From Theionarchaea archaeon (GTDB lineage Archaea; Methanobacteriota_B; Thermococci; Methanofastidiosales; SZ-28-30), in NCBI GenBank assembly GCA_018992685.1, contig JACVGT010000034.1, positions 14,735-78,734 on the forward strand: a stretch of DNA of 64,000 bases, given 5' to 3'. Made by a program: the position numbers and the translations under genes. This document shows, one piece after another, positions 1-42,062 of this stretch (the stretch's first letter is position 1; every line of letters starts with the position of its first letter). The notes under the pieces were generated by a model. It saw only the letters and a list, made by a program, of their open reading frames with translations, searched no databases and was not told the origin of the DNA.

Positions 1-685
1 TATCGGACAGTATTGTTATCGCATTCTTTGCCTCCTCATAGATCTGTTCAAACCCCTGCAGGAACTCCTGGTACATAGAACATGTGAGAGAGAGTCCATC
101 AGCACCGGCAGCCCTCCCCACGGGGGCTATTCTCATAATGTTGATCAACCTTACCCCGTGCTCAATACACAGGGCAATAACTCCCGGTACCTCCAGGTAG
201 TTCTCCCTGTGCAGAACGTACCCCACTGACGTTGTGACATGGTGTTCGTGTAACAGGCCGAGCGCCTGCACTGCCTTTTCAAAGGAACCTTCTGCTCTTC
301 TGAATTGTTCATGTGTTCTGGGCGTTGAACCATCAAGGCTGACTGTAACCAGTCCAAGGTTGCACCTTCTCAGTCTTTCTGCGATGTCTTCATCAATGAA
401 GGAGCCGTTGGTGCTCATGGTAACAGAAATGGTGTTGTCAGACAGTCTCTCTAGAATATCAAAGATGTCCTTCCGCATCAAAGGCTCTCCACCAGCAATG
501 AACAGGTCAAAGATACCAATTCTCTTGAATTCATCCAGCAGCTCGAGAGCTTCCTGATGGTTCAATTCATCTGCACGCCTCTTACCGGCATCAGCATAAC
601 AGTGCTTGCATCTGAAATTGCATTCTGAAGTGACTTCCCAGAAGAGACGGAGAGGAAGCTTGACAAAATCGCGGAGCTCTTTCAT
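1..685 (-). CDS. Radical SAM protein (PqqE/SPASM-like), 3' end runs off window
   Basis: Manual translation from ATG 685: MKELRDFVKLPLRLFWEVTSECNFRCKHCYA...FIAGGEPLMRKD...VSLDGS; CxxxCxxC and GGEP motifs; abuts the PqqD stop codon; absent from ORF track. Confidence 0.9.
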   Translation of the reverse strand, partial: MKELRDFVKLPLRLFWEVTSECNFRCKHCYADAGKRRADELNHQEALELLDEFKRIGIFDLFIAGGEPLMRKDIFDILERLSDNTISVTMSTNGSFIDEDIAERLRRCNLGLVTVSLDGSTPRTHEQFRRAEGSFEKAVQALGLLHEHHVTTSVGYVLHRENYLEVPGVIALCIEHGVRLINIMRIAPVGRAAGADGLSLTCSMYQEFLQGFEQIYEEAKNAITILSD

Positions 686-958
686 CTACACCACCGTCAC
701 CAGATTCTTGCTCTTCAGGTTCTGGATGACTTTATGTACATCTTTGAGAGCCTTGTCTCTGGTGACGTTCTCATATTCCTCTACTACTTCATCGGCTATT
801 TCTTCAGCAGTTTTTTCTCCATCGGCGAGTTTCCAGATGAAAGCTGCCGTTTGATTCAGGACAATAATCCTGTTGTCAGTGGCAGTATAAAGCACAAGAT
901 TTTCATCCTCACTTCGCCATTTCACCTCAGCAATACGCTTCGGGATTACCTCCGACAT
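686..958 (-). CDS. PqqD-family RiPP recognition element (RRE)
   Basis: LNQTAAFIWKLADGEKTAEEIADEVVEEY...DV...L...NLV PqqD pattern; GGTGA RBS before ATG 958; TATA-like tttataag at ~989-996. Confidence 0.88.
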   Translation of the reverse strand: MSEVIPKRIAEVKWRSEDENLVLYTATDNRIIVLNQTAAFIWKLADGEKTAEEIADEVVEEYENVTRDKALKDVHKVIQNLKSKNLVTVV

Positions 959-1330
959 GATATCACCAGCATATTTCACTTCTTTATCCTTATAAAGATT
1001 TCTTTCGAATCCTATATCGTACAGGTTACTGTCTAAAACCGTGATTTGGAGACATCAATTAACTAGGAACTCTTACCCACGGAAAACTAGCAGTGTCGGC
1101 ACAAGGAATTGGAAAAGATATGAGAGGAGGGTTGCGGGTCATGGTGCTCATGGCAAAGGAGATGAAAAGAGAGAGTGAGAGTATCCATGTCATGGCCTGA
1201 AAGAATAAGAGACACGATACCTGCGACGGCTTTCTGTATACTCCATCCTGAGGCAATTGGATTCAATGAAATGACGCAGGAGTGCAGAAAGACTTTTAAG
1301 GTAGTAGGAATTGGGAGACATGGTGAATCT

Positions 1331-1462
1331 ATGGAAAAGGTGTGTCTTCTTGAGGAGCTTTCCAAGGGACAGATACATGTCAGTGGCCATGTACTCCTAG
1401 GACTCTCCAGAATGAAAGAGAACTGCTCCATATGGGCGATACCTGCCCTGAAGAGGGGGTGA
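1331..1462 (+). CDS. Small ORF, 43 aa (possible peptide), first gene of kinase operon
   Basis: GGTGA RBS then ATG 1331, downstream of BRE/TATA-like gaaagacttttaag (~1287-1300); MEKVCLLEELSKGQIHVSGHVLLGLSRMKENCSIWAIPALKRG. Confidence 0.3.
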   Translation: MEKVCLLEELSKGQIHVSGHVLLGLSRMKENCSIWAIPALKRG

Positions 1463-2457
1463 AGGTGGTGGAAGAGACACCTGGAATGACAAGGCTGAAT
1501 GTCGGGCTCAAGACTGCTCACCTTGGTCCACGAGAATGTGAAAAGCTCCAAAATCTTGATCAAAGAGTACACACACTGGATATTTACGGAGTTACGATTA
1601 ATGTCTGCACGAATTCAACCCTCTATTCTGAAGAACTTTCAGGAACCTATGAAAGGTTGATTACCAGTACATCACAGGACCCCGATGCAGTCATCCGTAT
1701 TCTCACAGTTCCAGAGGACTTACCTGTTATTCACCAGCTGGGCTATGAGGAGGAGAAAAATGTCCTCGAATATTCCCATGATGACTCGAGGCTGTATATC
1801 ATTCCTGAATCGACAGAGCCTGGTAACTTCTTCCTGTCTGTGATGCAGGTTGCTCTTTTCCGCATTTTGCTGGATCATAACATGTTCTGTGCCCATGCAT
1901 CTGCTGCATCTCTTGGGAATCATGGGGTCATCTTTTCAGGTGAGTCAAACTCTGGTAAGACCACCCTGGTCATGGCGTTGCTGGCAGAGGGACACAAGTA
2001 CTTTTCGGACGACTTTGTTCTCATACATACTGATACCATGATGTTACTGCCCCTGTGTTCTCGATTGAAGCCACGGGGAAAGACAATCTCGATGTTTCCT
2101 GAAATGGAGACAGAAGATGCGAAAATATACATGGAAACAGAAACCCAGGTGAGAAAAATCCTTTCTGTTGGGCGCACCTTTCCTCATCTTCTGAGCCCCC
2201 CCTGTCCCCTGACCCACATCTTTTTTCCAACATTCAATCCAGAAGGGGAGACAGTACTCCAGCCTGTGTCCCCCTCTGATGGAGTGATAGCCTTTCTGAA
2301 ATCCTGGATGCTGTACAGGACAGAGCCCACCAGAGTATTTCCCCTGATTTCAAAGATAGTGCGGGCCTGCAAGACCTATTCACTGGAATATCGAGATGCA
2401 CGGGAAGCTGTCAAGGACTTGGTCAGAGTCATCTTGGGTGAGGACAGTGTCTCCTGA
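1432..2457 (+). CDS. HPr kinase-related P-loop kinase
   Basis: HASAA, Walker A GESNSGKTT and SDD motifs of the HprK-like fold; true start may be 1465 or 1486. Confidence 0.8.
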   Translation: MGDTCPEEGVKVVEETPGMTRLNVGLKTAHLGPRECEKLQNLDQRVHTLDIYGVTINVCTNSTLYSEELSGTYERLITSTSQDPDAVIRILTVPEDLPVIHQLGYEEEKNVLEYSHDDSRLYIIPESTEPGNFFLSVMQVALFRILLDHNMFCAHASAASLGNHGVIFSGESNSGKTTLVMALLAEGHKYFSDDFVLIHTDTMMLLPLCSRLKPRGKTISMFPEMETEDAKIYMETETQVRKILSVGRTFPHLLSPPCPLTHIFFPTFNPEGETVLQPVSPSDGVIAFLKSWMLYRTEPTRVFPLISKIVRACKTYSLEYRDAREAVKDLVRVILGEDSVS

Positions 2458-3679
2458 CCTGTATGACGTACCGGCTGCAGTCTCAAAAATAGCTCTCTCA
2501 GAAGAGGAGCAGGAAGTCATATCGAGGAAGGTGACCTCGTGGAGTACAAGAGCGTGGAATTCTTTATTCAAGAGAGCCCAGGAGGAAGTGGTAATTCCTC
2601 AGGTCTACAAGAATCTCAGTGATCTGGAGATAAGGCCCCCCATGTGGAATGATGTCAAAGGACTGTACTACAACGCCTGGGTCCACAAGCAGAATCTGCT
2701 GTCAGAAGCTAAAAAAGTGGGAGACGTACTTTCTCACCAGGGAATTTCATTTCTCTTTCTGAAAGGGCTGGCTGTCGACAGCCAGTACCAGGGAAGCTGG
2801 AGAGCTATGGCAGATATAGATGTACTCGTGAAAGACTTTGAACCTGCACAAAAATCTCTCTCAGGTATCGGGTATATTCTCGACGACATGTGGACTGCTG
2901 AACAGGGAAGATTCGGGGTGGGGAACTTATACTGCAGAGAACGCAAGACGAAGATTGATCTTCATTTCGGCGAATATCCTGTACACTCATTGGGAAGTTT
3001 TCATCTCCCTGTATGGGAGAGGTGTAGACCAGGAGAACCAGTCACGTCTCTTGAGGACACTCTGCTGGTGCTTGCAGCTCATGTGTTCAACCACGGGTTT
3101 TATCTCATGCGAGACATCAACGATGTATACGTCATTCTCCAGAATGAGCTAGACTGGCAGTATGTAACACAAAATGCCAAGGCCTACCACCTGGAAAAGC
3201 CGTTATCCATGCTGCTGAAGGCCGCAGCCTCCGTGTATGGTGTCCATATAAACGACGTGTGTAAGAGCAGGTTTTCACTTCTCTATCAGTATGGCCGCAG
3301 AAGGCACACTTTTCAAGGACTGCTCCAGCTGCACCATCTCGTGGTTCTCTCCCACATGAAGAAACTGGCATCATACCCTGGGTACTGGTGCGCCTCACAT
3401 CTCACTACCGCACACCACGTTATTGATCCCCCCTGGATAGGAAGGGCTTCTCCCTCCTGGATCAATCGGACAGACCGAAAGCGATTGGGTGACATGAGTA
3501 AAGAGGTATTTCATTCCATATTCGGTGGTAATACAGCTGCAGAGCAGGGCATGCACTTCATGTGTGAACAGGGTGGCGTCTATGTAGAAAAACGAGATCT
3601 TCAGGAGAAAGACCTGGAGCGAGCAAAAGGAATTATCAGGTCTTCTGCCCTGAAAGTTGATCGAGACATATCAATCTGA
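2447..3679 (+). CDS. Nucleotidyltransferase family protein (NTP_transf_5-like)
   Basis: LKG...R.M.DIDVLV...IDLH...H...D pattern; GTG 2447 with GAGG RBS overlaps the kinase stop (ORF track start 2396). Confidence 0.82.
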   Translation: MSPDLYDVPAAVSKIALSEEEQEVISRKVTSWSTRAWNSLFKRAQEEVVIPQVYKNLSDLEIRPPMWNDVKGLYYNAWVHKQNLLSEAKKVGDVLSHQGISFLFLKGLAVDSQYQGSWRAMADIDVLVKDFEPAQKSLSGIGYILDDMWTAEQGRFGVGNLYCRERKTKIDLHFGEYPVHSLGSFHLPVWERCRPGEPVTSLEDTLLVLAAHVFNHGFYLMRDINDVYVILQNELDWQYVTQNAKAYHLEKPLSMLLKAAASVYGVHINDVCKSRFSLLYQYGRRRHTFQGLLQLHHLVVLSHMKKLASYPGYWCASHLTTAHHVIDPPWIGRASPSWINRTDRKRLGDMSKEVFHSIFGGNTAAEQGMHFMCEQGGVYVEKRDLQEKDLERAKGIIRSSALKVDRDISI

Positions 3680-3770
3680 GACACAAGGAACTGGGTCCTC
3701 AGGAGGACGTAGTAGATAGCGATTCTTCCTTCATCCAAACACACATGCCCCTTTTAGATTGCACCCAGGT

Positions 3771-4577
3771 TTAAAAGAAAACAAGTTTTCCACTCTTTTT
3801 TGCCAAATGTTCAAAGTAACCCAAGACGAACGAACCGAGACAGAATAGCAGTGCGCCCACTATGAGCTCACGAGCCAGCAGCATGGGTATGGGTGAGAAC
3901 TCCTCAATCACGGCGAGGCGAGCAGCTTCTATTCCGTGAGTCAGAGGAATTGCTTTTGAGATATATTGAAGAGATTGTGGCAGCATACCAACGGGAAACG
4001 TCACTCCACAGAAGAACATCGTAGCAGACAGCATCATGCTGACGATGGGATGAGGCTGTCTGTAATACAGAGCCAGACCAGAAAAAAGCAATCCAAATCC
4101 CATCATACTGATAACTGATAGAAATGCGATTACGATCATATACAGGGAGCCCAGAACCGACATTCTGAGGCCAAACAGGGTGACACCATACAGCAACACG
4201 ATGAAAATCCCGAATATTCCATCTCCTATGTGGATCGCAGATTTTGCAATATTGAGCAGAGGTCTATTCACCGGTGTAGAGAAGAGTAGTTCCAGTGTTC
4301 CTTCCCTGCGCTCATTGAAAACAAAGAACATGGGCCCCATCAATGTATTGAACGTAGAAACATACAGCGCATTTCCCACCACCACGAAATTGATGTAGGA
4401 CTGTGCATCCTGGCCTGTGAGGGCGGCCCCATAGTCAGATATGAGCACAAATGTCAGGACAAGAAAGAAGGGAACACCGAGCTTCACAACAACAAAATCT
4501 GGTGGGTTGATCCAGGTGAAAAGTGCCCTGTAGGTGAAGATTCCTGTTCTGAACACAAATTTCAATGTTCTCATCAT
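3771..4577 (-). CDS. ABC-2 type exporter permease
   Basis: Six hydrophobic segments; ERREGTLELLFSTPV and FPVGMLP motifs. Confidence 0.9.
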   Translation of the reverse strand: MMRTLKFVFRTGIFTYRALFTWINPPDFVVVKLGVPFFLVLTFVLISDYGAALTGQDAQSYINFVVVGNALYVSTFNTLMGPMFFVFNERREGTLELLFSTPVNRPLLNIAKSAIHIGDGIFGIFIVLLYGVTLFGLRMSVLGSLYMIVIAFLSVISMMGFGLLFSGLALYYRQPHPIVSMMLSATMFFCGVTFPVGMLPQSLQYISKAIPLTHGIEAARLAVIEEFSPIPMLLARELIVGALLFCLGSFVLGYFEHLAKKSGKLVFF

Positions 4578-4586
4578 TTTGATCCC

Positions 4587-5381
4587 TCAATAGACTGACA
4601 GTTTTCCATCTCTGACTGCTATTTTCCTGATGTACCTGTAGAGGACCACGGCAACCACGAAATACACTGCTGTCAGGAATGTAACCATAGCTGCGTCCAT
4701 CCAGAAGACTGAAGATTCCCAGGCGTTTTGTGACACTGATACCCTTACTGCGTCCAGAGCCCACGTGAGAGAAAGAGAATAGCTGATAGGCCTCACCCAG
4801 AAAGGCAAGACAGATATGGGGAACAACAACCCGCCGAGGACATAGATCATGTACTGCATTAAATTCATGAAATACGCAACCCTTCTGGTCAGCATATAGG
4901 CTGATGCTAAAACAAGCCCGAATACAGACAGTGTCACGATTGTCATGACGAGAGATACAAGAAACAGTCCGGGGGATTCAATGTGTATGGGAAGTCGTAG
5001 GACGAATTTCCCCACAGCCAGAACGGCTGCAACCGAGACCAGGCCAGTTGCAGCAGAAGAAAGGATCTTTCCGAAAGAGAATGTGAAGAGAGAAACAGGT
5101 GTCAAGAACATCAACTCCAACGTTCCCTGCATCCGTTCTTGAAAAATAGACTTTCCTCCAAAGGACAGCACCATGGCCCAGACTCCAATGAATCCACTGC
5201 CAAAGACAACATATGTTGCATAGTCCTGGGAGCTTGTACCTACAAATCTGTAGAGCATTATTACCACAAAGGCAACAAACACGGGCTCTACAAACGCATG
5301 TATCCCCCACAGGATGTCTGCCCGTTCGTGTTGCAGTTGAGAAATGAACCCACGTCTCAGTGAAATCCAGTATGGGTTCAT
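4587..5381 (-). CDS. ABC-2 type exporter permease
   Basis: ERMQGTLELMFLTPV and FPISVLP motifs; multi-TM. Confidence 0.9.
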   Translation of the reverse strand: MNPYWISLRRGFISQLQHERADILWGIHAFVEPVFVAFVVIMLYRFVGTSSQDYATYVVFGSGFIGVWAMVLSFGGKSIFQERMQGTLELMFLTPVSLFTFSFGKILSSAATGLVSVAAVLAVGKFVLRLPIHIESPGLFLVSLVMTIVTLSVFGLVLASAYMLTRRVAYFMNLMQYMIYVLGGLLFPISVLPFWVRPISYSLSLTWALDAVRVSVSQNAWESSVFWMDAAMVTFLTAVYFVVAVVLYRYIRKIAVRDGKLSVY

Positions 5382-5382
5382 T

Positions 5383-6369
5383 CTATGACCTCGTCAGTTC
5401 CAAGAATACATCTTCGAGCGTGGGGGACCCCTGTTCCACAGAGATGATTTCATGCGTTTTTTCCAGCAAAGAAACAATATCCTCCACACACACTTTGTCC
5501 TGATCAAGCCCAACCTTGAGTTTAGTTGTATTATCCTGTATTCCTGATTCTACATAGTGTACGCCCTTTCTACTGGTTAATACATGCTCAACCTGAGGAA
5601 CAACTCCCCTCAGCAGGATGGTGACGGGTGTGACTGTGCCGAATTGCCGTTTTAGGTTCTCGGGGGTGTCATTGGCTATCAACGTACCCCTGTGAATGAT
5701 GGCAACACGATCACAGAGCTCGTCTGCTTCAAACATGTAGTGGGTTGTAAGAAAGACAGTCTTTTTTTCTCGTGTGCACAAATTCCTGATAGTCTTTCGC
5801 AGCTCATGGGCAATGGTGGGGTCGAGTCCAAGTGTCGGTTCATCCAAGAAGAGTATGTCAGGATCATGGACCAGACCTCGTGCCAGGTGGAGACGTTGCT
5901 TCATTCCTTTTGAATATGTTTCCACCTTGCTGTCCGCTCTGTCAGCAATCCCCACGAGTTCCAGGAGCATGTCAATTCTGTCCATCCGCTCAGAAGAGTC
6001 GAGTCCGTAGAGTTCGGCAAATATACGCATATTGTCTCTCCCACTCAGTCTCCAGTAAAGTCCTCGTTCCCCCCCGAATACCACACTGATCCGTTTCCTC
6101 ACTTCGTTTGGAGCCTTCAGAATATCATTACCAAGGATGGTAGCGGTTCCTTTGGTAGGCAATAGGAGTGTGGACAGCATCTTGATCGTAGTAGTCTTTC
6201 CCGCCCCATTTGGCCCCAAGAATCCAAAAAGCTCGCCACGATGTACCGAAATATTCAGGTTGTCGACAGCTACAATGATTCTGCTTCCTTCACCTCTAAT
6301 TCTTTTGAAAAAGGAGGGGTATTCTATATATTCTCTTGAAATATCGTAAGTCTTGATTACTGATTCCAT
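5383..6369 (-). CDS. ABC exporter ATP-binding subunit (DrrA-like)
   Basis: GPNGAGKTT, YSKGM, LFLDEPT, TTH; start placed at ATG 6369 (GGAGA RBS, TATA ~6425-6432). Confidence 0.93.
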   Translation of the reverse strand: MESVIKTYDISREYIEYPSFFKRIRGEGSRIIVAVDNLNISVHRGELFGFLGPNGAGKTTTIKMLSTLLLPTKGTATILGNDILKAPNEVRKRISVVFGGERGLYWRLSGRDNMRIFAELYGLDSSERMDRIDMLLELVGIADRADSKVETYSKGMKQRLHLARGLVHDPDILFLDEPTLGLDPTIAHELRKTIRNLCTREKKTVFLTTHYMFEADELCDRVAIIHRGTLIANDTPENLKRQFGTVTPVTILLRGVVPQVEHVLTSRKGVHYVESGIQDNTTKLKVGLDQDKVCVEDIVSLLEKTHEIISVEQGSPTLEDVFLELTRS

Positions 6370-6934
6370 GAATCTCATCTCCGATGGCATGCTACGAGAT
6401 AAATATGTTTTCCTTCGACAAGAATATTTAAATTTTTCGGTGGTTATGGTCCTGGATTTCCTGAATTGACAAAGAAATCCCGGAACGCCCATTGAAAAGA
6501 AAGAAGCTTTGTGGAGAGAGGTAGAACCCACTGCTCTAGGAGAGCTCAGGGGGCTGTATACGTGTAGTTGATAGTCCATGAGATGTGTTACAAGAAGTTA
6601 GTGTGAAGAATACAGTGCCGTTTTTAATCGTTCTGCAAAATAAAACTCCAATTATGTCTTGGCTTTCGGGATACGGGAATACTTGAACTCAGAAGCGAAA
6701 ACCTTTAAATATTCTCGATCAACTCTCCCGCGGTGATCACATAAGACCATCAGTTTTCGCTCTTGAACAGTGGACGCACAGAATGCAGAACCCCGGTTTC
6801 AAGAACCCTATCAAGGAAATAAGACATGAAAGAAGGAGGCACACTCCAGCTGAAAGTGCTTTTCTTTCAATTGATTTGCCAGTTCTCTTCCAGAACTCCT
6901 CCATACCCGATGCTTGGACTTCTGAGGTGAATCT

Positions 6935-8545
6935 GTGAAAGGAAGATTCTCCGCAGAGAACAGACAGTGTCGAGCCCTCTTCGAATTAGCATCTGATGCT
7001 GTATTCATCTCAAGCCTGGAAGGAGAATATCTTGAGGTCAATGAAAGAGCGTTGGAAATGCTTGGATACAAAATCCATGAACTAGTAGGGAAATCCTGCA
7101 AAGATATTGTCCTCTCATGTGAATGCCCCGATGAACTACAGAAACGGGAAGTTCTGCTTGCAGGAGGGAACCTACCCGTATACCAGAGGACGTTTGTCCG
7201 CAAGGATGGGGGTGAAATTCCTGCAGAGGTCACAGCTGCCCTGGTTTGCGATGAAGAAGGGAATCCCTTGTATATTCACAGTATTGTGCGGGACATTTCT
7301 GAACGCAAGAACACAGAATTAGCCTTGGAAGAGAGTCAGAGGAAATTCAGACTGTTTTTTGAAAGCGATTCCGTGTACTCTTACCTCATTTCCCCAGAAG
7401 GGCATGTACTGGACATCAACCTGAGCGCTCTGATTACACTGGGGTTCAAGAAGGAAGAGCTTATTGGAGCATCCTTGATTGAGACAGTCTACTCACCGTC
7501 TTCGCGAAAAAAAGCTGGAGAACTGTTCAAGAGACGGAAAGAGGCAGGAAAGGCCAAAAATGAGGAATTGAATATAATCACCAAGAATGGAGACGAAAGA
7601 ACTGTCTTTTCGCGTGTTGATTCGGTGACAACTTCCAACGGTGAAGTGCTCTCATTTATTCTAATCCAGAGGGACATTACGGAGAAGAAAAGAATTGAAG
7701 AGAAGCTCTTCACAATATGCAAACTTTCCAATAAGATGACGTTATCCTTGGATTTTGATGAAATAATAAGTACAGCCCTGTACATTGCCAGAAGAGTCAT
7801 TGAGTTGCGCACAGCTGGCATTACGCTCATTGACGAGGAAAAAAATGAACTCTACATCGCTGGATCCTATAACGTTGACAGGAGAGTTGACGATCTGAGG
7901 TTCCCCCTGAAAAGCGAGGTTGGGATTACAGCGCACGTCGCTAGAACGGGTGAACCATACTACTCCCCCGATGTCTCAAGGGACACGTTATACCTCAAGG
8001 TGACACCAAACATCAGGTCTGAGCTCGCCGTTCCTCTCAAGATAGGAACCAGGGTCTTGGGCGTTTTTGACGCAGAAAGTACAGAACCAGATGCTTTTTC
8101 TGATTCAGACTTTCTCCTGTTGAGCATCCTTGCTTCCCAGACTGCTGGTGCATTGCAGAACTACAGCCTTTTTAAAGAGGTGTCCGATTTGAAAGATTTT
8201 AATGAAAGCATAGTCAAGAATATTGAGGAGGGCATCTTGATAGAGGACAGCAGGGGATTTGTAACCTTTGTGAATAAAGCATTTGAAGACATGATGGGAC
8301 GTGTCAGTGAAGAAATTGTGGGAAAGCACTGGAAAGAACTTCCTCCCAAAGAACTGGTGCCCCGAATAGAGGACGAAATCGAGAGAGCACCGAAAGGGAT
8401 CAAGAGACGATATGAAAGTGAAATTGTGAGAAAAGACGGGGAACGGACGCTGGTGGCCATAACGGCAATACCTCTCTTTGATGATGGAGGATTCAGGGGA
8501 GTGTTATCATTCTTTAAGGACCTGGGGAAGAGGAACGAATCCTGA
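6935..8545 (+). CDS. PAS-PAS-GAF-PAS sensor protein without output domain
   Basis: PAS/PAC ends RDISERK and RDITEKK; GAF GITAHVARTGEP...SELAVPL; GAGGTGA RBS before GTG. Confidence 0.85.
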   Translation: MKGRFSAENRQCRALFELASDAVFISSLEGEYLEVNERALEMLGYKIHELVGKSCKDIVLSCECPDELQKREVLLAGGNLPVYQRTFVRKDGGEIPAEVTAALVCDEEGNPLYIHSIVRDISERKNTELALEESQRKFRLFFESDSVYSYLISPEGHVLDINLSALITLGFKKEELIGASLIETVYSPSSRKKAGELFKRRKEAGKAKNEELNIITKNGDERTVFSRVDSVTTSNGEVLSFILIQRDITEKKRIEEKLFTICKLSNKMTLSLDFDEIISTALYIARRVIELRTAGITLIDEEKNELYIAGSYNVDRRVDDLRFPLKSEVGITAHVARTGEPYYSPDVSRDTLYLKVTPNIRSELAVPLKIGTRVLGVFDAESTEPDAFSDSDFLLLSILASQTAGALQNYSLFKEVSDLKDFNESIVKNIEEGILIEDSRGFVTFVNKAFEDMMGRVSEEIVGKHWKELPPKELVPRIEDEIERAPKGIKRRYESEIVRKDGERTLVAITAIPLFDDGGFRGVLSFFKDLGKRNES

Positions 8546-8593
8546 CGTGTTCTATTGGTGCTTTCAGCAGTGCGTCCCAATGACTTTCCCTTT

Positions 8594-9208
8594 CTAGGGT
8601 TTTCTTGCTGTCAGTGAAAAATGATTTGCTCTGTCAATATGAAGGTCAACGATGCAAAACCCTTCAAACAGTGAGAGAAGTTCCTCTTTCTTGAAATAAT
8701 GATGTGGAAATCCTTTTTCGCAGCCATCTAGTGGTACGAACGTATTGGGTTCGATTTCCTCTTGGCCCGTGCTGGGTTCATTCTTGGACACAGGCACTGT
8801 AACCCATATGAGTCCCCCCACTCTGAGAACACGAGTAATCTCCTGGACGGTCTTCCTGATATCTCTAACCCTGTTGTGATGGATTACCTGTATGCTTATG
8901 ACTGCATCAAAGTACGCATCATCATATGGCAACGTGGCCATATCATGAAGGGTTACATGTGCTGTCAGCTTTTGTTCCCCAAGAATTCTAATAGTATGTC
9001 CGAGGGCGGTAGGTGATGAATCCAGCCCATAGACATCGAACCCCTTTCGGGCAAGATAAACGACATGTCTCCCCGCCCCGCTTCCCAAGTCCAGGATGCG
9101 GTTTACCCTTTCTTCTGTGAACATACCAGCAATCACATCAATTCCAACATGAGGTTCCAGGGACAAAAACTCACCCCTCTTGTAGATTTCTTCCCAGACA
9201 TTCTTCAT
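8594..9208 (-). CDS. Class I SAM-dependent methyltransferase
   Basis: ILDLGSGAGRH motif I; FDAVIS; LRVGG. Confidence 0.88.
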   Translation of the reverse strand: MKNVWEEIYKRGEFLSLEPHVGIDVIAGMFTEERVNRILDLGSGAGRHVVYLARKGFDVYGLDSSPTALGHTIRILGEQKLTAHVTLHDMATLPYDDAYFDAVISIQVIHHNRVRDIRKTVQEITRVLRVGGLIWVTVPVSKNEPSTGQEEIEPNTFVPLDGCEKGFPHHYFKKEELLSLFEGFCIVDLHIDRANHFSLTARKP

Positions 9209-9391
9209 ACGAATTCTTTTTCCCAGCTCTTATAAAGGGTTTTGATGAGATCTATTCTCGTAGGGTGAGGCTTTGTACTTCGTTTTCGGAAAGAAGTCAT
9301 CTCTTGGAATTGGAACAGTCTTCATGCACGGCCAAGATCTGCTGCAAAGCTAGTAGAAATGTTTTTATGATATCTCTCGATATTTGTCATC

Positions 9392-10978
9392 ATGCAGAGG
9401 CTGACAAAGCTTTCTTTGGGGATGGTCTCAATAGGGATCATGTTTTTTCTTACCGTAGCACCGTATCCTACAGCAGCTGTTGATAGACCTGGTGAGGTTC
9501 AAATAACGTCGTGTTCAACCAACTTTGACCCTGCACTCTATGAGGATATGGTTGTATGGATAACAAAGATAAATGGCACGTATGGGGTTTATGGACTGAA
9601 CCTTGAAACAGGGAGAAGCTTCTTCAACACCGCAGACCCGTGCAGGAAGAAGAACCCCCAGATCTACCAGGACGTTGTGGTCTGGGAAGACATGAGGAAT
9701 GGCAACTGGGACATCTATGGATATGATCTGGCCACCTATCAAGAATTCCAGATCACCAAAGACGAGAAGGACCAGACACACCCTGCAATTTACGGAGACA
9801 TTGTGGTATGGGAGGACAGAAGAAACGGTGAGTCAGATATTTATGGATATAATTTGAAGACGCATGAGGAGTTCCTTATTTCCAAGAGTGAAGGCTCTCA
9901 TTACACTCCCGATATTTTCGAAGACCTTGTGGTGTGGCATGGCTACAGGAATTCTGGCAATGCTATCTATGGGTATGATCTTCTCACAGGACAGGAGTTT
10001 CAGATTGTTGATGTCACGTGGAGTTTTGATTTGGTCTTGTCAGGGAAGTATGTGGTCTGGCAAGACTACGACAGCGGGAACCAGGAGATCTATGCCTATA
10101 ACCTCTCTTCCTCAGAAAGGACCACGGTATTCAGGGATCTATGGCGATGGGAGTGGTCATGCAGGTCGGATCCCATGACACTGCGCAAGATTGCGGCCTA
10201 TGATGACACGGTCTTGTGGGCTAGCTACCGTGACTGTAACTACGACATCTACGGGTATAATCTTGCCACAGGGAATCAGGTTCAGATCACCTCTGATCTT
10301 CATGATCAATTCTTTCCTGCTCTTTACAAGAATACTGCTGTGTGGATGGATGATAGAGACGGGAACTATAATGTCTATGGATATGACCTTGACTTTCCCG
10401 TTGTACCCGTATGGCTGACCTATGAAAAAAAGGTCACACTGCTCAGACTCTCATATGCAGCATTCCTTGTTTTCTTTGCCATTGGTGCTGGAATCATAGG
10501 ACGGAAGGTGAAACCTCTTCAGAACCTGTCAGAGAAACCAGTTCAAGTATTGAAAAGGGGACCTGTATCTGTTGTGGCACCAGCTGTTGTGTCTCTGATG
10601 TTTGCAGCCTTTTCACTGTATTTCTTCGAGAGTTTGGTCCTGTATGAGGCTAATTTTTCCATTATCGTTACTATTCTCTCTTTTGCACTCATATCATTGC
10701 TCCCTGTCTATATTACTGACTGGTGTGCAAGAACGCCGTACATCTTGATGACTGACACGGGTGTTACAGTCCTGGGAGTGTGGGGCAACGTCCAAAGGGT
10801 AAAGTGGAATGACATTCAAGAGGTCAGTGTGCAAAAGAAAAAGATTGATATCTTCACAGAAAAGCGAGAAATCATAGTCTGGCTATCCGTACTCTCTGAA
10901 AAAGAAAAAGAACAGTTCGTTCGGAGAATCAAGGATCTTTCTGAGAGTGCTGACATACCCCTGCATGAAGAAACATGA
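9392..10978 (+). CDS. Membrane-anchored beta-propeller repeat surface protein
   Basis: Signal peptide; repeated P.IY.D.VVWED.RNG..DIYGY.L units; C-terminal TM helices and PH-like tail. Confidence 0.85.
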   Translation: MQRLTKLSLGMVSIGIMFFLTVAPYPTAAVDRPGEVQITSCSTNFDPALYEDMVVWITKINGTYGVYGLNLETGRSFFNTADPCRKKNPQIYQDVVVWEDMRNGNWDIYGYDLATYQEFQITKDEKDQTHPAIYGDIVVWEDRRNGESDIYGYNLKTHEEFLISKSEGSHYTPDIFEDLVVWHGYRNSGNAIYGYDLLTGQEFQIVDVTWSFDLVLSGKYVVWQDYDSGNQEIYAYNLSSSERTTVFRDLWRWEWSCRSDPMTLRKIAAYDDTVLWASYRDCNYDIYGYNLATGNQVQITSDLHDQFFPALYKNTAVWMDDRDGNYNVYGYDLDFPVVPVWLTYEKKVTLLRLSYAAFLVFFAIGAGIIGRKVKPLQNLSEKPVQVLKRGPVSVVAPAVVSLMFAAFSLYFFESLVLYEANFSIIVTILSFALISLLPVYITDWCARTPYILMTDTGVTVLGVWGNVQRVKWNDIQEVSVQKKKIDIFTEKREIIVWLSVLSEKEKEQFVRRIKDLSESADIPLHEET

Positions 10979-39414: not shown

Positions 39415-40723
39415 TCCTCAATGAGTCCACAAGGGCATACCCTGTGTCTACATAGGTGGGATAGACAAAGGACCTGTGAAGCTCTCTTTCTGTGCTGACA
39501 AAGCTCACTCTTGGAAGTAAATCTTCAAATGCCAGTCCAGAGATCATGCATCCTTTAACAGGAGTCATTATCTCCCCTTTCTTGATGATAAACCCTGAAG
39601 TCACCCCGATGGAAAACAGGCCGGACTGTGACTTAGAGGCGTGAGAATTTGTCTCCTCAACTACCAGGATGCCATCCCGTATTTCGCTGATGAGCTCCTC
39701 AACTGGTGCCGCATCCCCGGTGACACACAAAGATGTGGTGCAGGGCTTGGGAGGGTCTCTGAGATTCCGGCCACGATACCGATTGTATCTGATGCCCCCT
39801 GCTGTTGTCTCCCCATAGTAGGTGTCATAAATAAAGGATTTTACAGACGCATCAGCGATGAGGTCCACTGGTCGGGAAGGTATTCCCTCATCATCAAACT
39901 GACGTCCCTGGGGGCCTTCCACCAGAGGGTTCTCCCTGACGGTGAGGTGTTCTGCTGCAACTGTCTGTCCTATCTTCAGGGAAGAACGTCCTTCTTCCAT
40001 GTTGTGTCCCAGAAAGGACGGAACCGCTGCACACACCAGAAGGTTGGCGAACACCCTGGGGGCAAGCAGTACTTTCTTCTCTCCCGATTCTGGTTTCACT
40101 TTTCCCAGCTGTCTCACTGCCTGCTGTTCAGCATGTTTTCCTATGTCACAGAAATCGAAATCATATCCCAATGAGTATCCGTGAGCATAACCCATTCCAG
40201 AATCACCATCTTCAGCTCTGCACATGACTCTGAGGGCAGCCAGTGAATCAATGCCTTTTTTCGAAATCCCTGATGTGTTGGCAATTTCCGTCTGAGAGTG
40301 TCCAAGCTGGCAATATACGTTGGAGGCAACAATCCGCGGATCCTCGATAGCCTCGCAGATAACCTTCATGTCCTGCATGACCTGATCGATGGATGCGTTG
40401 GCAACAGACTCTCTATACAGGTTCAGTGAGGGACCAGGTCTTTCAGGAGCAAACGATTTCCACTTCTCATTCTTCTCCCGTTTTCTGGCAAGGGCAACTG
40501 CTTCTTCCACAGCTTCTTTCCAAGACTGGGTGAAGTAAGAGAACCCCACCCTGTGGTCAACAACGACTCGTAGGGCGTACTCAGTGATTCTAGCCTGGAA
40601 TACCTGTCGTGGCTCACCCAATTCAAACTTGGCATAGGCGTAATCAGATTCTTCGCAGACAACTTCTGCTTCATCAGCCCCTTGCTTCTCTGCATAGCCC
40701 AGTATCCTATCGACCTCGCCCAC
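39404..40723 (-). CDS. TldE/PmbA family protein
   Basis: GADEAEV, FDDEGIP, G.FS; lacks HExxH. Confidence 0.88.
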   Translation of the reverse strand: MGEVDRILGYAEKQGADEAEVVCEESDYAYAKFELGEPRQVFQARITEYALRVVVDHRVGFSYFTQSWKEAVEEAVALARKREKNEKWKSFAPERPGPSLNLYRESVANASIDQVMQDMKVICEAIEDPRIVASNVYCQLGHSQTEIANTSGISKKGIDSLAALRVMCRAEDGDSGMGYAHGYSLGYDFDFCDIGKHAEQQAVRQLGKVKPESGEKKVLLAPRVFANLLVCAAVPSFLGHNMEEGRSSLKIGQTVAAEHLTVRENPLVEGPQGRQFDDEGIPSRPVDLIADASVKSFIYDTYYGETTAGGIRYNRYRGRNLRDPPKPCTTSLCVTGDAAPVEELISEIRDGILVVEETNSHASKSQSGLFSIGVTSGFIIKKGEIMTPVKGCMISGLAFEDLLPRVSFVSTERELHRSFVYPTYVDTGYALVDSLRITA

Positions 40724-42062
40724 CTATCATCACCTCCCGCAGTCTGATCTTGGGTACCAGTCTCCCCTGGTAGTCCATCTGACCTTTGCCACATCCTCCA
40801 GACGCCACGTCCACCTCTTTTCCCACGGCGTCCACCTTTTTCATGGTCTCGAGGACATTTCCTGAAAGGGAGCATCCCCGTAAGTACTTTCCCAGTTCAC
40901 CATTGGAAATCTCTCGCGTGTACTGTGTGCCAAAAGAAAAGGTGCCCTCTCCCACATTTACCTGCCCACCTGCAGAATCTCCCAGAAAGAGACCTCCTCT
41001 CACATCCAGGAGTTCAGGCAGAGCATACTCTCCAGGATCAAGAATGGTATTCCCCTGCCGCACGATAGGAGTCCTGGAGAAGTATTCTGCTTTGCAGTGT
41101 CCCGTCAAAGCTGCATTGAGAAGAGCAGCAGTTTCTCTGGAATGCAGGTAGGAGGTGAGCACCCCCTCATTGATCACTGTGGTAGGACGGGCAGCAACCC
41201 CCTCATGGTCATACGGGCTGAATCCCATCAATTCCCGCGTGGGATCATCTCTCATAGTAATGCAGTCTGCAGCCACCTTCTCCCCAATTCTTCCTGCCAG
41301 TATGGACTCATTGGAAACGACGAGGTCGGCCTCCACTGCGTGACCGAATGCTTCATGCAGTAAGGTGCCGGTCAGCGTGTTGCTCAGGACACAATCCATG
41401 ACTGATGACGGGGAGTGTTCTGCCTCTACCAGGACGTCTGCCTCCCGCGCAAGCTTCGCCGTGGTCTCCATGATATTCTCCTCGTTGGTCAGGAGGTACT
41501 CCATTCCTCCCACACCTCCCCAGGTCTGTGCTCGGGACTCAATGCTGGTTCCTTCCTTGCAGGTAATACTCGCTCGGAGGTAGATGCGATCAACTCTGGT
41601 GGTAACGCTTCTTTCTTCTGATGTGGTAATATGTATGAAACGCTCAAGAGCAATCAGGCTGATGCTGAGAGAGGAAATCCTTTTGCTCTGTTCATGTGCC
41701 CTTTCCTCCATGGAAGAAAGATATTCCGTAACATTTTCATCGACAACTCTCTTTTCAGCCTTTTTCTCAACAGTGACCGTCTCAGCATCCGTCTCTCTGA
41801 CACAGACCTCATTCTTTCTGGTTTGAGCCCTGGCTGATTTCATTACCCTGTCCAGAAGAGAAGGAAGATCAGATTCGGAGGTCACCATGCCAGTCCCCCA
41901 GGATCCATTGACCAGGCATCTCAAACAGAACCCTTCATTTATTTGTACTTCACTGCTGTTGGTCTTTCGGTTTTCCCGCACCACCGTATAGACTCTTTTA
42001 TTGTCATGACGAAGATCAGCGTAGGTTGCACTGCGTTCTGACGCTTGATCAATAACGTTCAT
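40707..42062 (-). CDS. TldD family metalloprotease
   Basis: LHEAFGHAVEAD, YD.EG, GGQV, C-terminal CGK. Confidence 0.9.
   Translation of the reverse strand: MNVIDQASERSATYADLRHDNKRVYTVVRENRKTNSSEVQINEGFCLRCLVNGSWGTGMVTSESDLPSLLDRVMKSARAQTRKNEVCVRETDAETVTVEKKAEKRVVDENVTEYLSSMEERAHEQSKRISSLSISLIALERFIHITTSEERSVTTRVDRIYLRASITCKEGTSIESRAQTWGGVGGMEYLLTNEENIMETTAKLAREADVLVEAEHSPSSVMDCVLSNTLTGTLLHEAFGHAVEADLVVSNESILAGRIGEKVAADCITMRDDPTRELMGFSPYDHEGVAARPTTVINEGVLTSYLHSRETAALLNAALTGHCKAEYFSRTPIVRQGNTILDPGEYALPELLDVRGGLFLGDSAGGQVNVGEGTFSFGTQYTREISNGELGKYLRGCSLSGNVLETMKKVDAVGKEVDVASGGCGKGQMDYQGRLVPKIRLREVMIGGRGR

Follow-up and report, generated by a model that had tools for sequence, protein, structure and literature searches.

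The 64,000-nucleotide stretch of Theionarchaea archaeon DNA analyzed here (the window, bases 14735-78734 of contig C17 in a 3.03-Mb genome of 45 contigs that is 91% complete) begins inside what appears to be a gene cluster for a modified peptide. [quoted passage not shown] From the gene families we infer that a leader-guided archaeal peptide is modified by radical S-adenosylmethionine (rSAM) enzymes, probably phosphorylated and further decorated. At the locus the gene families are recognizable, the operon is tightly packed, eight of the genes are co-conserved, no cyclase gene is present, and one small gene bears the typical marks of a precursor gene.

A sequence-only reading of window bases 1-6369 had described a RiPP-like cluster of seven genes. 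All seven open reading frames (ORFs) were recovered by ORF calling, and scans with Pfam and NCBIfam bore out their families. The gene orientations also proved as described: an rSAM/PqqD pair on the minus strand and a kinase/PF14907 pair on the plus strand diverge across a 452-bp spacer, and the plus-strand pair converges on an exporter. That reading had seen no cyclase and no B2 protease, which is correct for the window, and had proposed retrieval of the sequence to its left. C17:1-16000 was fetched and scanned. The cluster runs on there, with a SPASM domain, a B2-like protease gene 375 bases left of window base 1, a candidate precursor and no cyclase, and its enzyme genes total about 12 kb, roughly twice the 6.4 kb first flagged. 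These left-hand parts, together with co-conservation and an rSAM enzyme placed outside the AhbD/NirJ families, came out in favor of the RiPP-type assignment. The host domain was confirmed as archaeal by a signal recognition particle (SRP) RNA, whose archaeal model matches the genome with 170.9 bits, above the family cut-off; of the control genomes, the four archaeal ones alone score above it. The features are listed below, with RRE for RiPP recognition element, NTP for nucleoside triphosphate and ABC for ATP-binding cassette.

C17:9218-9310, plus strand: candidate precursor, 30 codons
C17:9381-10670, plus strand: RRE-fused rSAM/SPASM enzyme, 429 amino acids (aa), convergent to the minus-strand operon
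C17:10734-12161, minus strand: orphan protein, 475 aa, no family
C17:12198-13742, minus strand: B12-binding rSAM enzyme, 514 aa
C17:13739-14359, minus strand: transglutaminase-core (B2-like) cysteine protease, 206 aa
C17:14364-15419, minus strand: rSAM/SPASM enzyme, 351 aa; the window part (2-685) holds the N-terminal 228 codons
Window 686-979, minus strand: PqqD-type discrete RRE, 97 aa as listed
Window 980-1431: spacer between the divergent operons, 452 bp, presumably the promoter region
Window 1432-2457, plus strand: HprK-like P-loop kinase, ORF of 341 aa
Window 2396-3679, plus strand: NTP_transf_5 (PF14907) nucleotidyltransferase-fold protein
Window 3771-4577, minus strand: ABC-2 permease, second of two
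Window 4587-5381, minus strand: ABC-2 permease, first of two
Window 5383-6369, minus strand: DrrA-type ABC ATPase, ORF open to 6579

Layout and co-conservation of the enzyme genes

On the minus strand lie, in this order, the genes for PqqD, rSAM/SPASM enzyme, protease, B12-rSAM enzyme and orphan; the gaps between them are 0, 4, -4 and 36 bases, the PqqD gene directly adjoining the rSAM/SPASM gene, and this tight packing indicates that the five form one operon. A metagenome contig, L017, has eight of the cluster enzyme genes with order and orientation preserved, at 53-68% protein identity. The set comprises the C-terminus of the RRE-fused rSAM enzyme, the orphan, the B12-rSAM enzyme, the protease, the 351-aa rSAM/SPASM enzyme (60.6% identity), PqqD (67.8%), the kinase (58.5%) and the PF14907 protein (56.2%). 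The co-conservation that the sequence-only reading had asked about thus held for rSAM, PqqD, kinase and nucleotidyltransferase genes, which stand together on L017, and failed for the ABC-2 exporter, instead of which a major facilitator superfamily (MFS) transporter gene is inserted within the operon. Since the exporter is not co-conserved with the enzyme core, its membership in the cluster is only plausible. No match to TldD/PmbA or to flavin reductase was found on L017.

L017 was the only one with the cluster among 52 loci obtained by kinase-profile scans of genome and metagenome contigs. At the other 51, no cluster protein was matched beyond a P-loop stretch or an ABC ATPase, and these loci are therefore uninformative on the system. 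Among 5.8 billion sequences the kinase family is very small, with 10 clusters (59-100% identity), and the orphan family has eight protein clusters; the longest contigs of five kinase and five orphan clusters coincide in size (11886, 13072, 16122, 17710 and 85925 bases), from which we infer that both families lie on the same five contigs. Among 40 relatives, two of them of the same genus, the search gave only a 19.6-bit P-loop match in one, and over the class the kinase profile and the orphan profile each matched a single genome among 133, that of the window itself. This genome has one gene copy each for kinase, PF14907 protein, protease and orphan.

Small ORFs conserved between the cluster and L017 were only other-frame shadows of conserved genes, and the L017 spacers held no ORF with a leader motif. 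Likewise, no small ORF conserved with L017, no Rfam match and no leader-motif ORF was found in the spacer at 980-1431, nor did Rfam give a match anywhere in C17:1-16000 or window 1-9000. PADLOC assigned none of five proteins to a defense system.

The candidate precursor gene

The 30-codon ORF at C17:9218-9310 on the plus strand lies 70 bases before the gene for the RRE-fused rSAM/SPASM enzyme and encodes the peptide MKYVEPEVFEFAEESITDKCLAMWATFTPT, which is present with exactly this sequence as a called protein in the protein collection. Its residues 3-8 read YxxPxV and fit [Y/W]xxPx[L/V/I/F/A], the type of motif bound by the discrete RREs of lasso peptide systems and of the linear polyphosphorylated peptide (LPP) family (PMC13381572). 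A YxxPxL-type leader accompanied by a discrete or fused RRE is a feature of lasso clusters, found here in the peptide plus PqqD. As a background rate, 29 of 3614 start-to-stop ORFs (18-120 aa, whole contig C17) carry the motif near the N-terminus; in the cluster region eight ORFs contain [YW]xxPx[LVIFA], and the 30-codon gene is the only intergenic one. The sequence GGAGGTGA, a strong ribosome-binding site, stands six bases before its ATG, a TTAAATA box is found some 45 bases upstream, and behind the stop codon there is an oligo-T run.

Genome-wide, the leader motif is carried by 18 of 2004 small ATG ORFs preceded by a Shine-Dalgarno-like sequence. Three of the 18 lie directly upstream of rSAM/SPASM genes with PqqD nearby: the C17 gene, C10:29291-29377 and C7:54558, the last encoding a WxxP peptide. 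The C10 gene has 28 codons, encodes MYAKPMLEEITVRITADKWLISLPALPY and shows the same GGAGGTGA spacing and T-run as the C17 gene; in both peptides the Tyr is separated from an Asp-Lys pair by the same 16 residues. It opens a paralogous cluster (C10:29291-35773) in which, with the first 60 residues of the ORFs inspected, the 28-codon YxxPxL gene is accompanied by an rSAM/SPASM enzyme (379 aa), PqqD, two B12-rSAM enzymes (445 and 466 aa), a 292-aa ORF and a 414-aa ORF that is MFS-like by reading. The C10 cluster resembles that of C17 in the design of the small gene, the leader motif, the Tyr to Asp-Lys spacing and a PqqD that is the nearest paralogue, but lacks kinase, PF14907 protein, transglutaminase-core protease and orphan.

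In Bsf-type lasso leaders the YxxPxL motif occupies positions -17 to -12 (PMC10368454). This ruler would place the leader-core junction after Lys19 in the C17 peptide and after Lys18 in the C10 peptide, in each case right behind the shared Asp-Lys; for the C17 peptide it could equally follow Thr17 or Asp18. The predicted core, residues 20-30, contains one Cys (Cys20), one Trp (Trp24) and three Thr, with no Ser and no Asp or Glu.

Logan contigs of four sequencing runs from other studies were mapped onto C17:9000-10700. One run, X5, supplied a diverged contig of 1648 bases in which 60 of 305 bases differ over part of the rSAM gene and only 8 of 90 over the precursor stretch (9205-9294), the alignment ending before the last four codons of the peptide. 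The listed precursor differences (9235, 9253 and 9256) each fall on the third position of a codon (Pro6, Ala12 and Glu13) and are synonymous; because about 18% of random changes there are synonymous, three of three would arise by chance with a probability of about 0.006.

Enzyme families encoded in the cluster

The 351-aa enzyme matches Pfam Radical_SAM with 104-105 bits (105.3 on the window part; cut-off 29.5) and, on the whole gene, SPASM with 39.7 bits, and it has a CxxxCxxC motif and a C-terminal CX2CX5CX3C motif. Its best NCBIfam scores, 162-182 bits, are all far under cut-offs of 265-500, and the top models are NirJ2 (182.2), AhbD (179.6), GeoRSP (172.4) and MftC (161.8). The first two of these are what speaks for a role of the rSAM/SPASM enzymes in maturation of a cofactor, of the haem or haem d1 type (AhbD/NirJ) or PQQ-like, an explanation that we consider very improbable. 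The AhbD/NirJ scores (178-182 bits against cut-offs of 500) amount to about one third of the cut-offs and are tied with those of the peptide maturases GeoRSP and MftC; on these grounds the enzyme is placed outside AhbD/NirJ, so that the grouping with cofactor enzymes considered by the sequence-only reading was not borne out. Moreover, the genome contains 47 matches to the AhbD model, corresponding to roughly 30 rSAM/SPASM genes and none over the cut-off, and 20 matches to PqqD, 16 of them over the cut-off, which is the picture of a paralogue swarm and not of a pathway enzyme, and no other haem or PQQ gene was seen among the ORFs of C17:1-21100. For a 3-Mb archaeon this rSAM/SPASM and PqqD set is an unusually large peptide-maturase-like complement.

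The 429-aa enzyme joins an N-terminal PqqD-like RRE with an rSAM core and a complete SPASM domain. The best NCBIfam model is the sactipeptide maturase StsB, with 126.6 bits against a cut-off of 625, and judged by its scores the enzyme belongs to no curated NCBIfam family. The best models of the B12-rSAM enzyme are those of the RiPP enzymes ApyD (147.4 bits) and rSAM_ocin_1 (133 bits), both under cut-off.

The discrete RRE matches Pfam PqqD with 65.4 bits (cut-off 23.4) and the NCBIfam models ScmD and lasso PqqD chaperone with 37.9 bits each, under their cut-offs. Its start may be at base 958, since the L017 copy aligns from Met8, and at E<=1e-8 the genome has just one paralogue of it, the PqqD in the C10 cluster (34% identity). 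In a profile search of solved structures the top three were a 'PqqD family protein' (9x8z) and the lasso B1 proteins TbiB1 and TfuB1, with non-significant E values of 0.07-0.6. The protease matches Transglut_core with 34.5 bits (cut-off 23) and retains candidate Cys, His and Asp positions in both the C17 and L017 copies. It had no NCBIfam match at E<=0.001 and no match by sequence to a solved structure; its atlas neighbors are small transglutaminase-core proteins, all scoring <0.9. No Asn-synthetase-like cyclase is present among the ORFs of C17:1-21100, and the only PF00733 (Asn_synthase) match in the genome is on contig C5, in a 391-aa asnB-like ORF whose best model is asn_synth_AEB, with 104.1 bits against a cut-off of 267.1.

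Residues 149-330 of the kinase match positions 94-277 of the 280 in the NCBIfam profile HprK_rel_A (TIGR04352) at E 1.2e-17, but with 63.9 bits against a cut-off of 200 the kinase is a homologue and not a member of that family; Pfam Hpr_kinase_C gives 21.7 bits, below the cut-off of 33.3. The family profile matches the solved Hpr(Ser) kinase 3tqf (E 4.7e-5). All 10 family members share an invariant Walker A motif and an invariant Asp-Asp pair (D193, D194); in PsmK, the corresponding D158A/D159A change abolished phosphorylation (PMC6993621). The database copy of the kinase has 329 aa and thus starts 12 codons further in than the 341-aa ORF. The gene of the PF14907 protein, with its listed start, overlaps that of the kinase by 62 bases. 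Its product matches Pfam NTP_transf_5 with 103.9 bits (cut-off 31.2; profile positions 3-248 of 249), and a sequence search of solved structures found nothing for it. The DxD pair D140/D142 is also kept in the L017 copy; in PsmN, D134A/D136A abolished hexose addition (PMC6993621).

The orphan has no Pfam family in any of eight family members, apart from a match to TTL at E 0.064 in two of them. Searches of solved structures by sequence found nothing, and hhalign against the pair of PF14907 proteins gave a probability of 0.3. A single-sequence structure model had a predicted local distance difference test score (pLDDT) of 37.0 and an AlphaFold model from eight sequences a mean of 49.3, with residues 11-80 at 69-87. 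With this model Foldseek gave nothing at E<=0.001, the best rows being MNT antitoxins and aminoglycoside adenylyltransferases at E 0.04-0.6. The best VIA-align score was Z 7.9, where Z under 8 can be chance, and at least 15 of the best 20 rows are nucleotidyltransferases by title, including MNT antitoxins, aminoglycoside and lincosamide nucleotidyltransferases, the DrrA AMPylation domain and Tam41. The nucleotidyltransferase-fold matches cover two separate regions, approximately residues 4-130 and 243-371, the first of which has an invariant Ser-Asp-Leu-Asp stretch; the atlas lead is NTP_transf_2 and Polbeta. With low confidence, we therefore take the orphan to be a probable tandem nucleotidyltransferase-like protein.

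Of the exporter genes, the permeases at 3771-4577 and 4587-5381 match Pfam ABC2_membrane with 61.0 and 64.9 bits (cut-off 26.9). The ATPase matches NCBIfam drrA with 317.2 bits (cut-off 312.45) and Pfam ABC_tran with 103.9 bits from residue 106; the ORF is open to 6579, and its likely start is Met71 at base 6369, which fits the end coordinate of the sequence-only reading.

Proposed pathway, its alternatives and known peptide systems

In the pathway that we propose, the 30-residue precursor MKYVEPEVFEFAEESITDKCLAMWATFTPT would be translated from its own strongly initiated small gene, and two proteins would hold its YxxPxV leader motif, the first rSAM/SPASM enzyme with its fused RRE and the discrete PqqD. 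The two rSAM/SPASM enzymes may crosslink the short core with its Cys20 and Trp24, and the B12-rSAM enzyme may add one or more C-methyl groups. The HprK-like kinase would phosphorylate a hydroxyl of the Thr-rich C-terminal tail, with leader Ser15 as an alternative target, and the PF14907 protein could then put a sugar or nucleotide on that phosphate in the manner of PsmN, a step in which the orphan may also act. The transglutaminase-core protease is predicted to cut off the leader near Asp18-Lys19, PqqD presenting the leader as lasso B1 does to B2, and the ABC-2 pump would export the product or protect the cell from it. No macrolactam is expected, because there is neither a cyclase gene nor an acidic acceptor residue in the core. 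The kinase step is the weakest link, since characterized relatives act on Ser and the core offers only Thr.

HprK-like kinases act on Ser of lasso and LPP precursors by polyphosphorylation, and PsmN attaches a hexose to the phosphate (PMC6993621, PMC13381572); the characterized kinases target a C-terminal Ser (paeninodin, pseudomycoidin) or Ser3 (Bsf, LPP) (PMC6993621, PMC13381572). Among the closest published systems is the LPP family found in Bacillota (lppA-K-B-S-D-N; Popov et al., Nat Commun 2026, PMC13381572). [quoted passage not shown] At the level of domain families, with no comparison of LPP sequences, the C17 cluster shares the RRE, kinase and NTP transferase, as well as a leader with a [Y/W]xxP RRE-binding motif and an expected dependence of leader removal on the RRE. 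In contrast, of the LPP leader consensus YxxPxVLxHQxIxFETxxS the C17 peptide shares YxxPxV only; the exporter consists of a DrrA-type ATPase and two ABC-2 permeases instead of an MsbA-like pump; the precursor has 30 aa against 35-200 aa; three rSAM enzymes and the 475-aa orphan are added; and the host is an archaeon, whereas according to the LPP paper LPPs are restricted to Bacillota and kinase plus nucleotidyltransferase chemistry is shown only in bacteria (PMC13381572). The SpI signal peptidase that is a feature of LPP clusters also has no counterpart, no signal-peptidase family being found among 15 cluster proteins scanned against Pfam. Since such a peptidase and an MsbA-like pump are missing and the leader consensus is matched in its first six positions only, C17 is not an LPP cluster.

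Lasso clusters with kinase (K) and nucleotidyltransferase (N) genes have been known since 2016-2019. With the phosphorylated or phospho-glycosylated lasso systems, which are likewise among the closest described, paeninodin (pade), pseudomycoidin (psm) and Bradymonas bsf (PMC6993621, PMC10368454, PMC9266682) the C17 cluster shares a B1-type PqqD, a B2-like Cys protease, an HprK-like kinase with an Asp-Asp pair, a PsmN-like nucleotidyltransferase with a DxD pair and a YxxPx[L/V] motif at the spacing reported for lasso leaders. It differs in that it lacks the Asn-synthetase-like cyclase and, if the 30-aa ORF is the substrate, an Asp/Glu acceptor at about position 7-9 of the core; none of Thr, Ile and Val stands at position -2, the protease stays under the cut-off of the lasso-type Pfam model, and rSAM enzymes are present that are not part of the pade, psm and bsf clusters. 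Without cyclase and acceptor residue, C17 is not a lasso cluster. With the rSAM/SPASM maturases of sactipeptides and ranthipeptides it has in common a fused N-terminal RRE, a precursor gene directly upstream and a Cys in the core, but there is only one core Cys, and genes for kinase, nucleotidyltransferase and lasso-type protease are joined to the enzymes. In the open literature, no paper was found in which 'HPr kinase', nucleotidyltransferase, PqqD and 'radical SAM' occur together (the search covered article texts, with the supplementary domain co-occurrence tables of PMC13381572 outside its scope); searches on archaeal RiPP mining, Theionarchaea and lasso plus radical SAM returned no description of such a cluster, and those on kinase plus nucleotidyltransferase peptide chemistry in archaea no paper.

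Several observations weigh against the proposed single cluster and its pathway. On L017, 3.4 kb with three extra genes (L017:6729-10007) lie between PqqD and kinase; they encode an M29 aminopeptidase, a pyridoxal phosphate (PLP)-dependent decarboxylase and a 102-aa ORF without a family, and could be either added tailoring genes (N-terminal trimming, decarboxylation) or an unrelated insertion. L017 also lacks a counterpart of the ABC-2 pump beside the core genes, and it ends inside the RRE-rSAM gene, short of the precursor position. Kinase and RRE score far under the cut-offs of every curated family, and the protease reaches 20.5 bits, under the cut-off of 26, with PF13471, which we take to be the model covering lasso B proteins. 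Conservation of the precursor rests on one diverged contig (X5), for which only three of the eight differences are listed, and on one paralogous cluster (C10), whose peptide aligns with that of C17 only somewhat better than shuffled sequences do, 85 in 2000 of them scoring as high. A word-index search for homologues of the 30-aa peptide returned the peptide itself only, and an exhaustive phmmer search of 1.84 billion representatives the peptide itself plus P0020 only. The latter, 492 aa of approximately 55-residue tandem repeats with six matches (E 1.1e-8), was judged a repeat-inflated chance match and is probably a translated repeat. Position -2 would be Asp, as opposed to the Thr typical of lasso leaders. 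Finally, the predicted core without Ser leaves only Thr to the kinase, and LppK did not accept Ser3Thr (PMC13381572).

The locus might instead consist of two independent neighbors: an rSAM peptide operon (precursor, two rSAM/SPASM enzymes, B12-rSAM enzyme, PqqD, protease and orphan) and a kinase-nucleotidyltransferase pair that serves another peptide, a surface protein or a glycan, with the ABC-2 pump belonging to either or neither. The three unrelated genes on L017, the non-conserved exporter, the Ser specificity of the known kinases (PMC13381572, PMC6993621) and the C10 cluster, which does without kinase, PF14907 protein and protease, agree with such an arrangement. We regard it nevertheless as unlikely, given that both halves stand together on L017 and, by the coinciding contig sizes, on five contigs, that both are single-copy in the genome, that with these queries neither was found elsewhere in the class and that the kinase requires a discrete RRE in published systems (PMC10368454), the only nearby one being this PqqD.

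That the locus is a RiPP cluster whose real precursor lies elsewhere in the genome or in its unassembled part, the 30-codon ORF being not the substrate or not the sole one, is quite improbable. It would agree with the outcome of the two database searches and with an assembly that is incomplete and divided among many contigs. On the other hand, position, ribosome-binding site, leader motif and T-run of the ORF all fit a precursor gene, the listed differences in the diverged X5 relative are all synonymous, and the same gene design precedes two other rSAM/PqqD clusters of the genome.

To our knowledge, hardly any archaeal modified peptides have been characterized. Returning to a single cluster acting on the 30-residue peptide, we propose, tentatively and with considerable doubt, that it is the first archaeal lasso-derived, cyclase-free phospho-peptide system and a RiPP class of its own, in which lasso-type leader handling by a YxxP leader, a B1-like PqqD and a B2-like protease is combined with two crosslinking rSAM/SPASM enzymes, a methylating B12-rSAM enzyme and the orphan. 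The product would be a peptide of 11 residues that carries crosslinks, C-methyl groups, phosphorylated Thr and a nucleotide or sugar. If so, the lasso-type leader-handling module would be a portable unit that can be coupled to a different core chemistry, that of radical SAM, and would have passed into archaea or be common to them as well. The 30-residue candidate substrate bears on what PF14907 enzymes, PsmN and LppN among them, add, on the use of Thr by HprK-like peptide kinases and on the orphan double nucleotidyltransferase-like family. With its roughly 30 rSAM/SPASM genes and 16 PqqD matches over cut-off, the host genome looks like a rich, untouched source of such pathways.

Adjacent to the precursor gene on its left, C17:5740-9093 contains a TldD/PmbA pair on the plus strand and a flavin reductase gene on the minus strand. 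The PmbA may serve leader degradation; it appears to be one of many paralogues, because its best matches in three related genomes are only 26-32% identical. A second TldD/PmbA-like pair was seen as tblastn matches of 29-31% identity at window 39500-42056 (C17:54234-56790). A search of three related genomes for orthologues of the flanks, which would mark the borders of an island, returned only paralogues at 26-42% identity. Further to the right, a plus-strand ORF of 528 aa (window 9392-10978) contains many 'xDIYGYxL'-like repeats, beta-propeller-like in appearance, and has a hydrophobic C-terminal half. Between it and the exporter, a plus-strand ORF of 536 aa (window 6935-8545) has by eye the look of a PAS/GAF-type sensor, and its relatives in a sister genus are embedded in longer ORFs of up to 1548 aa.

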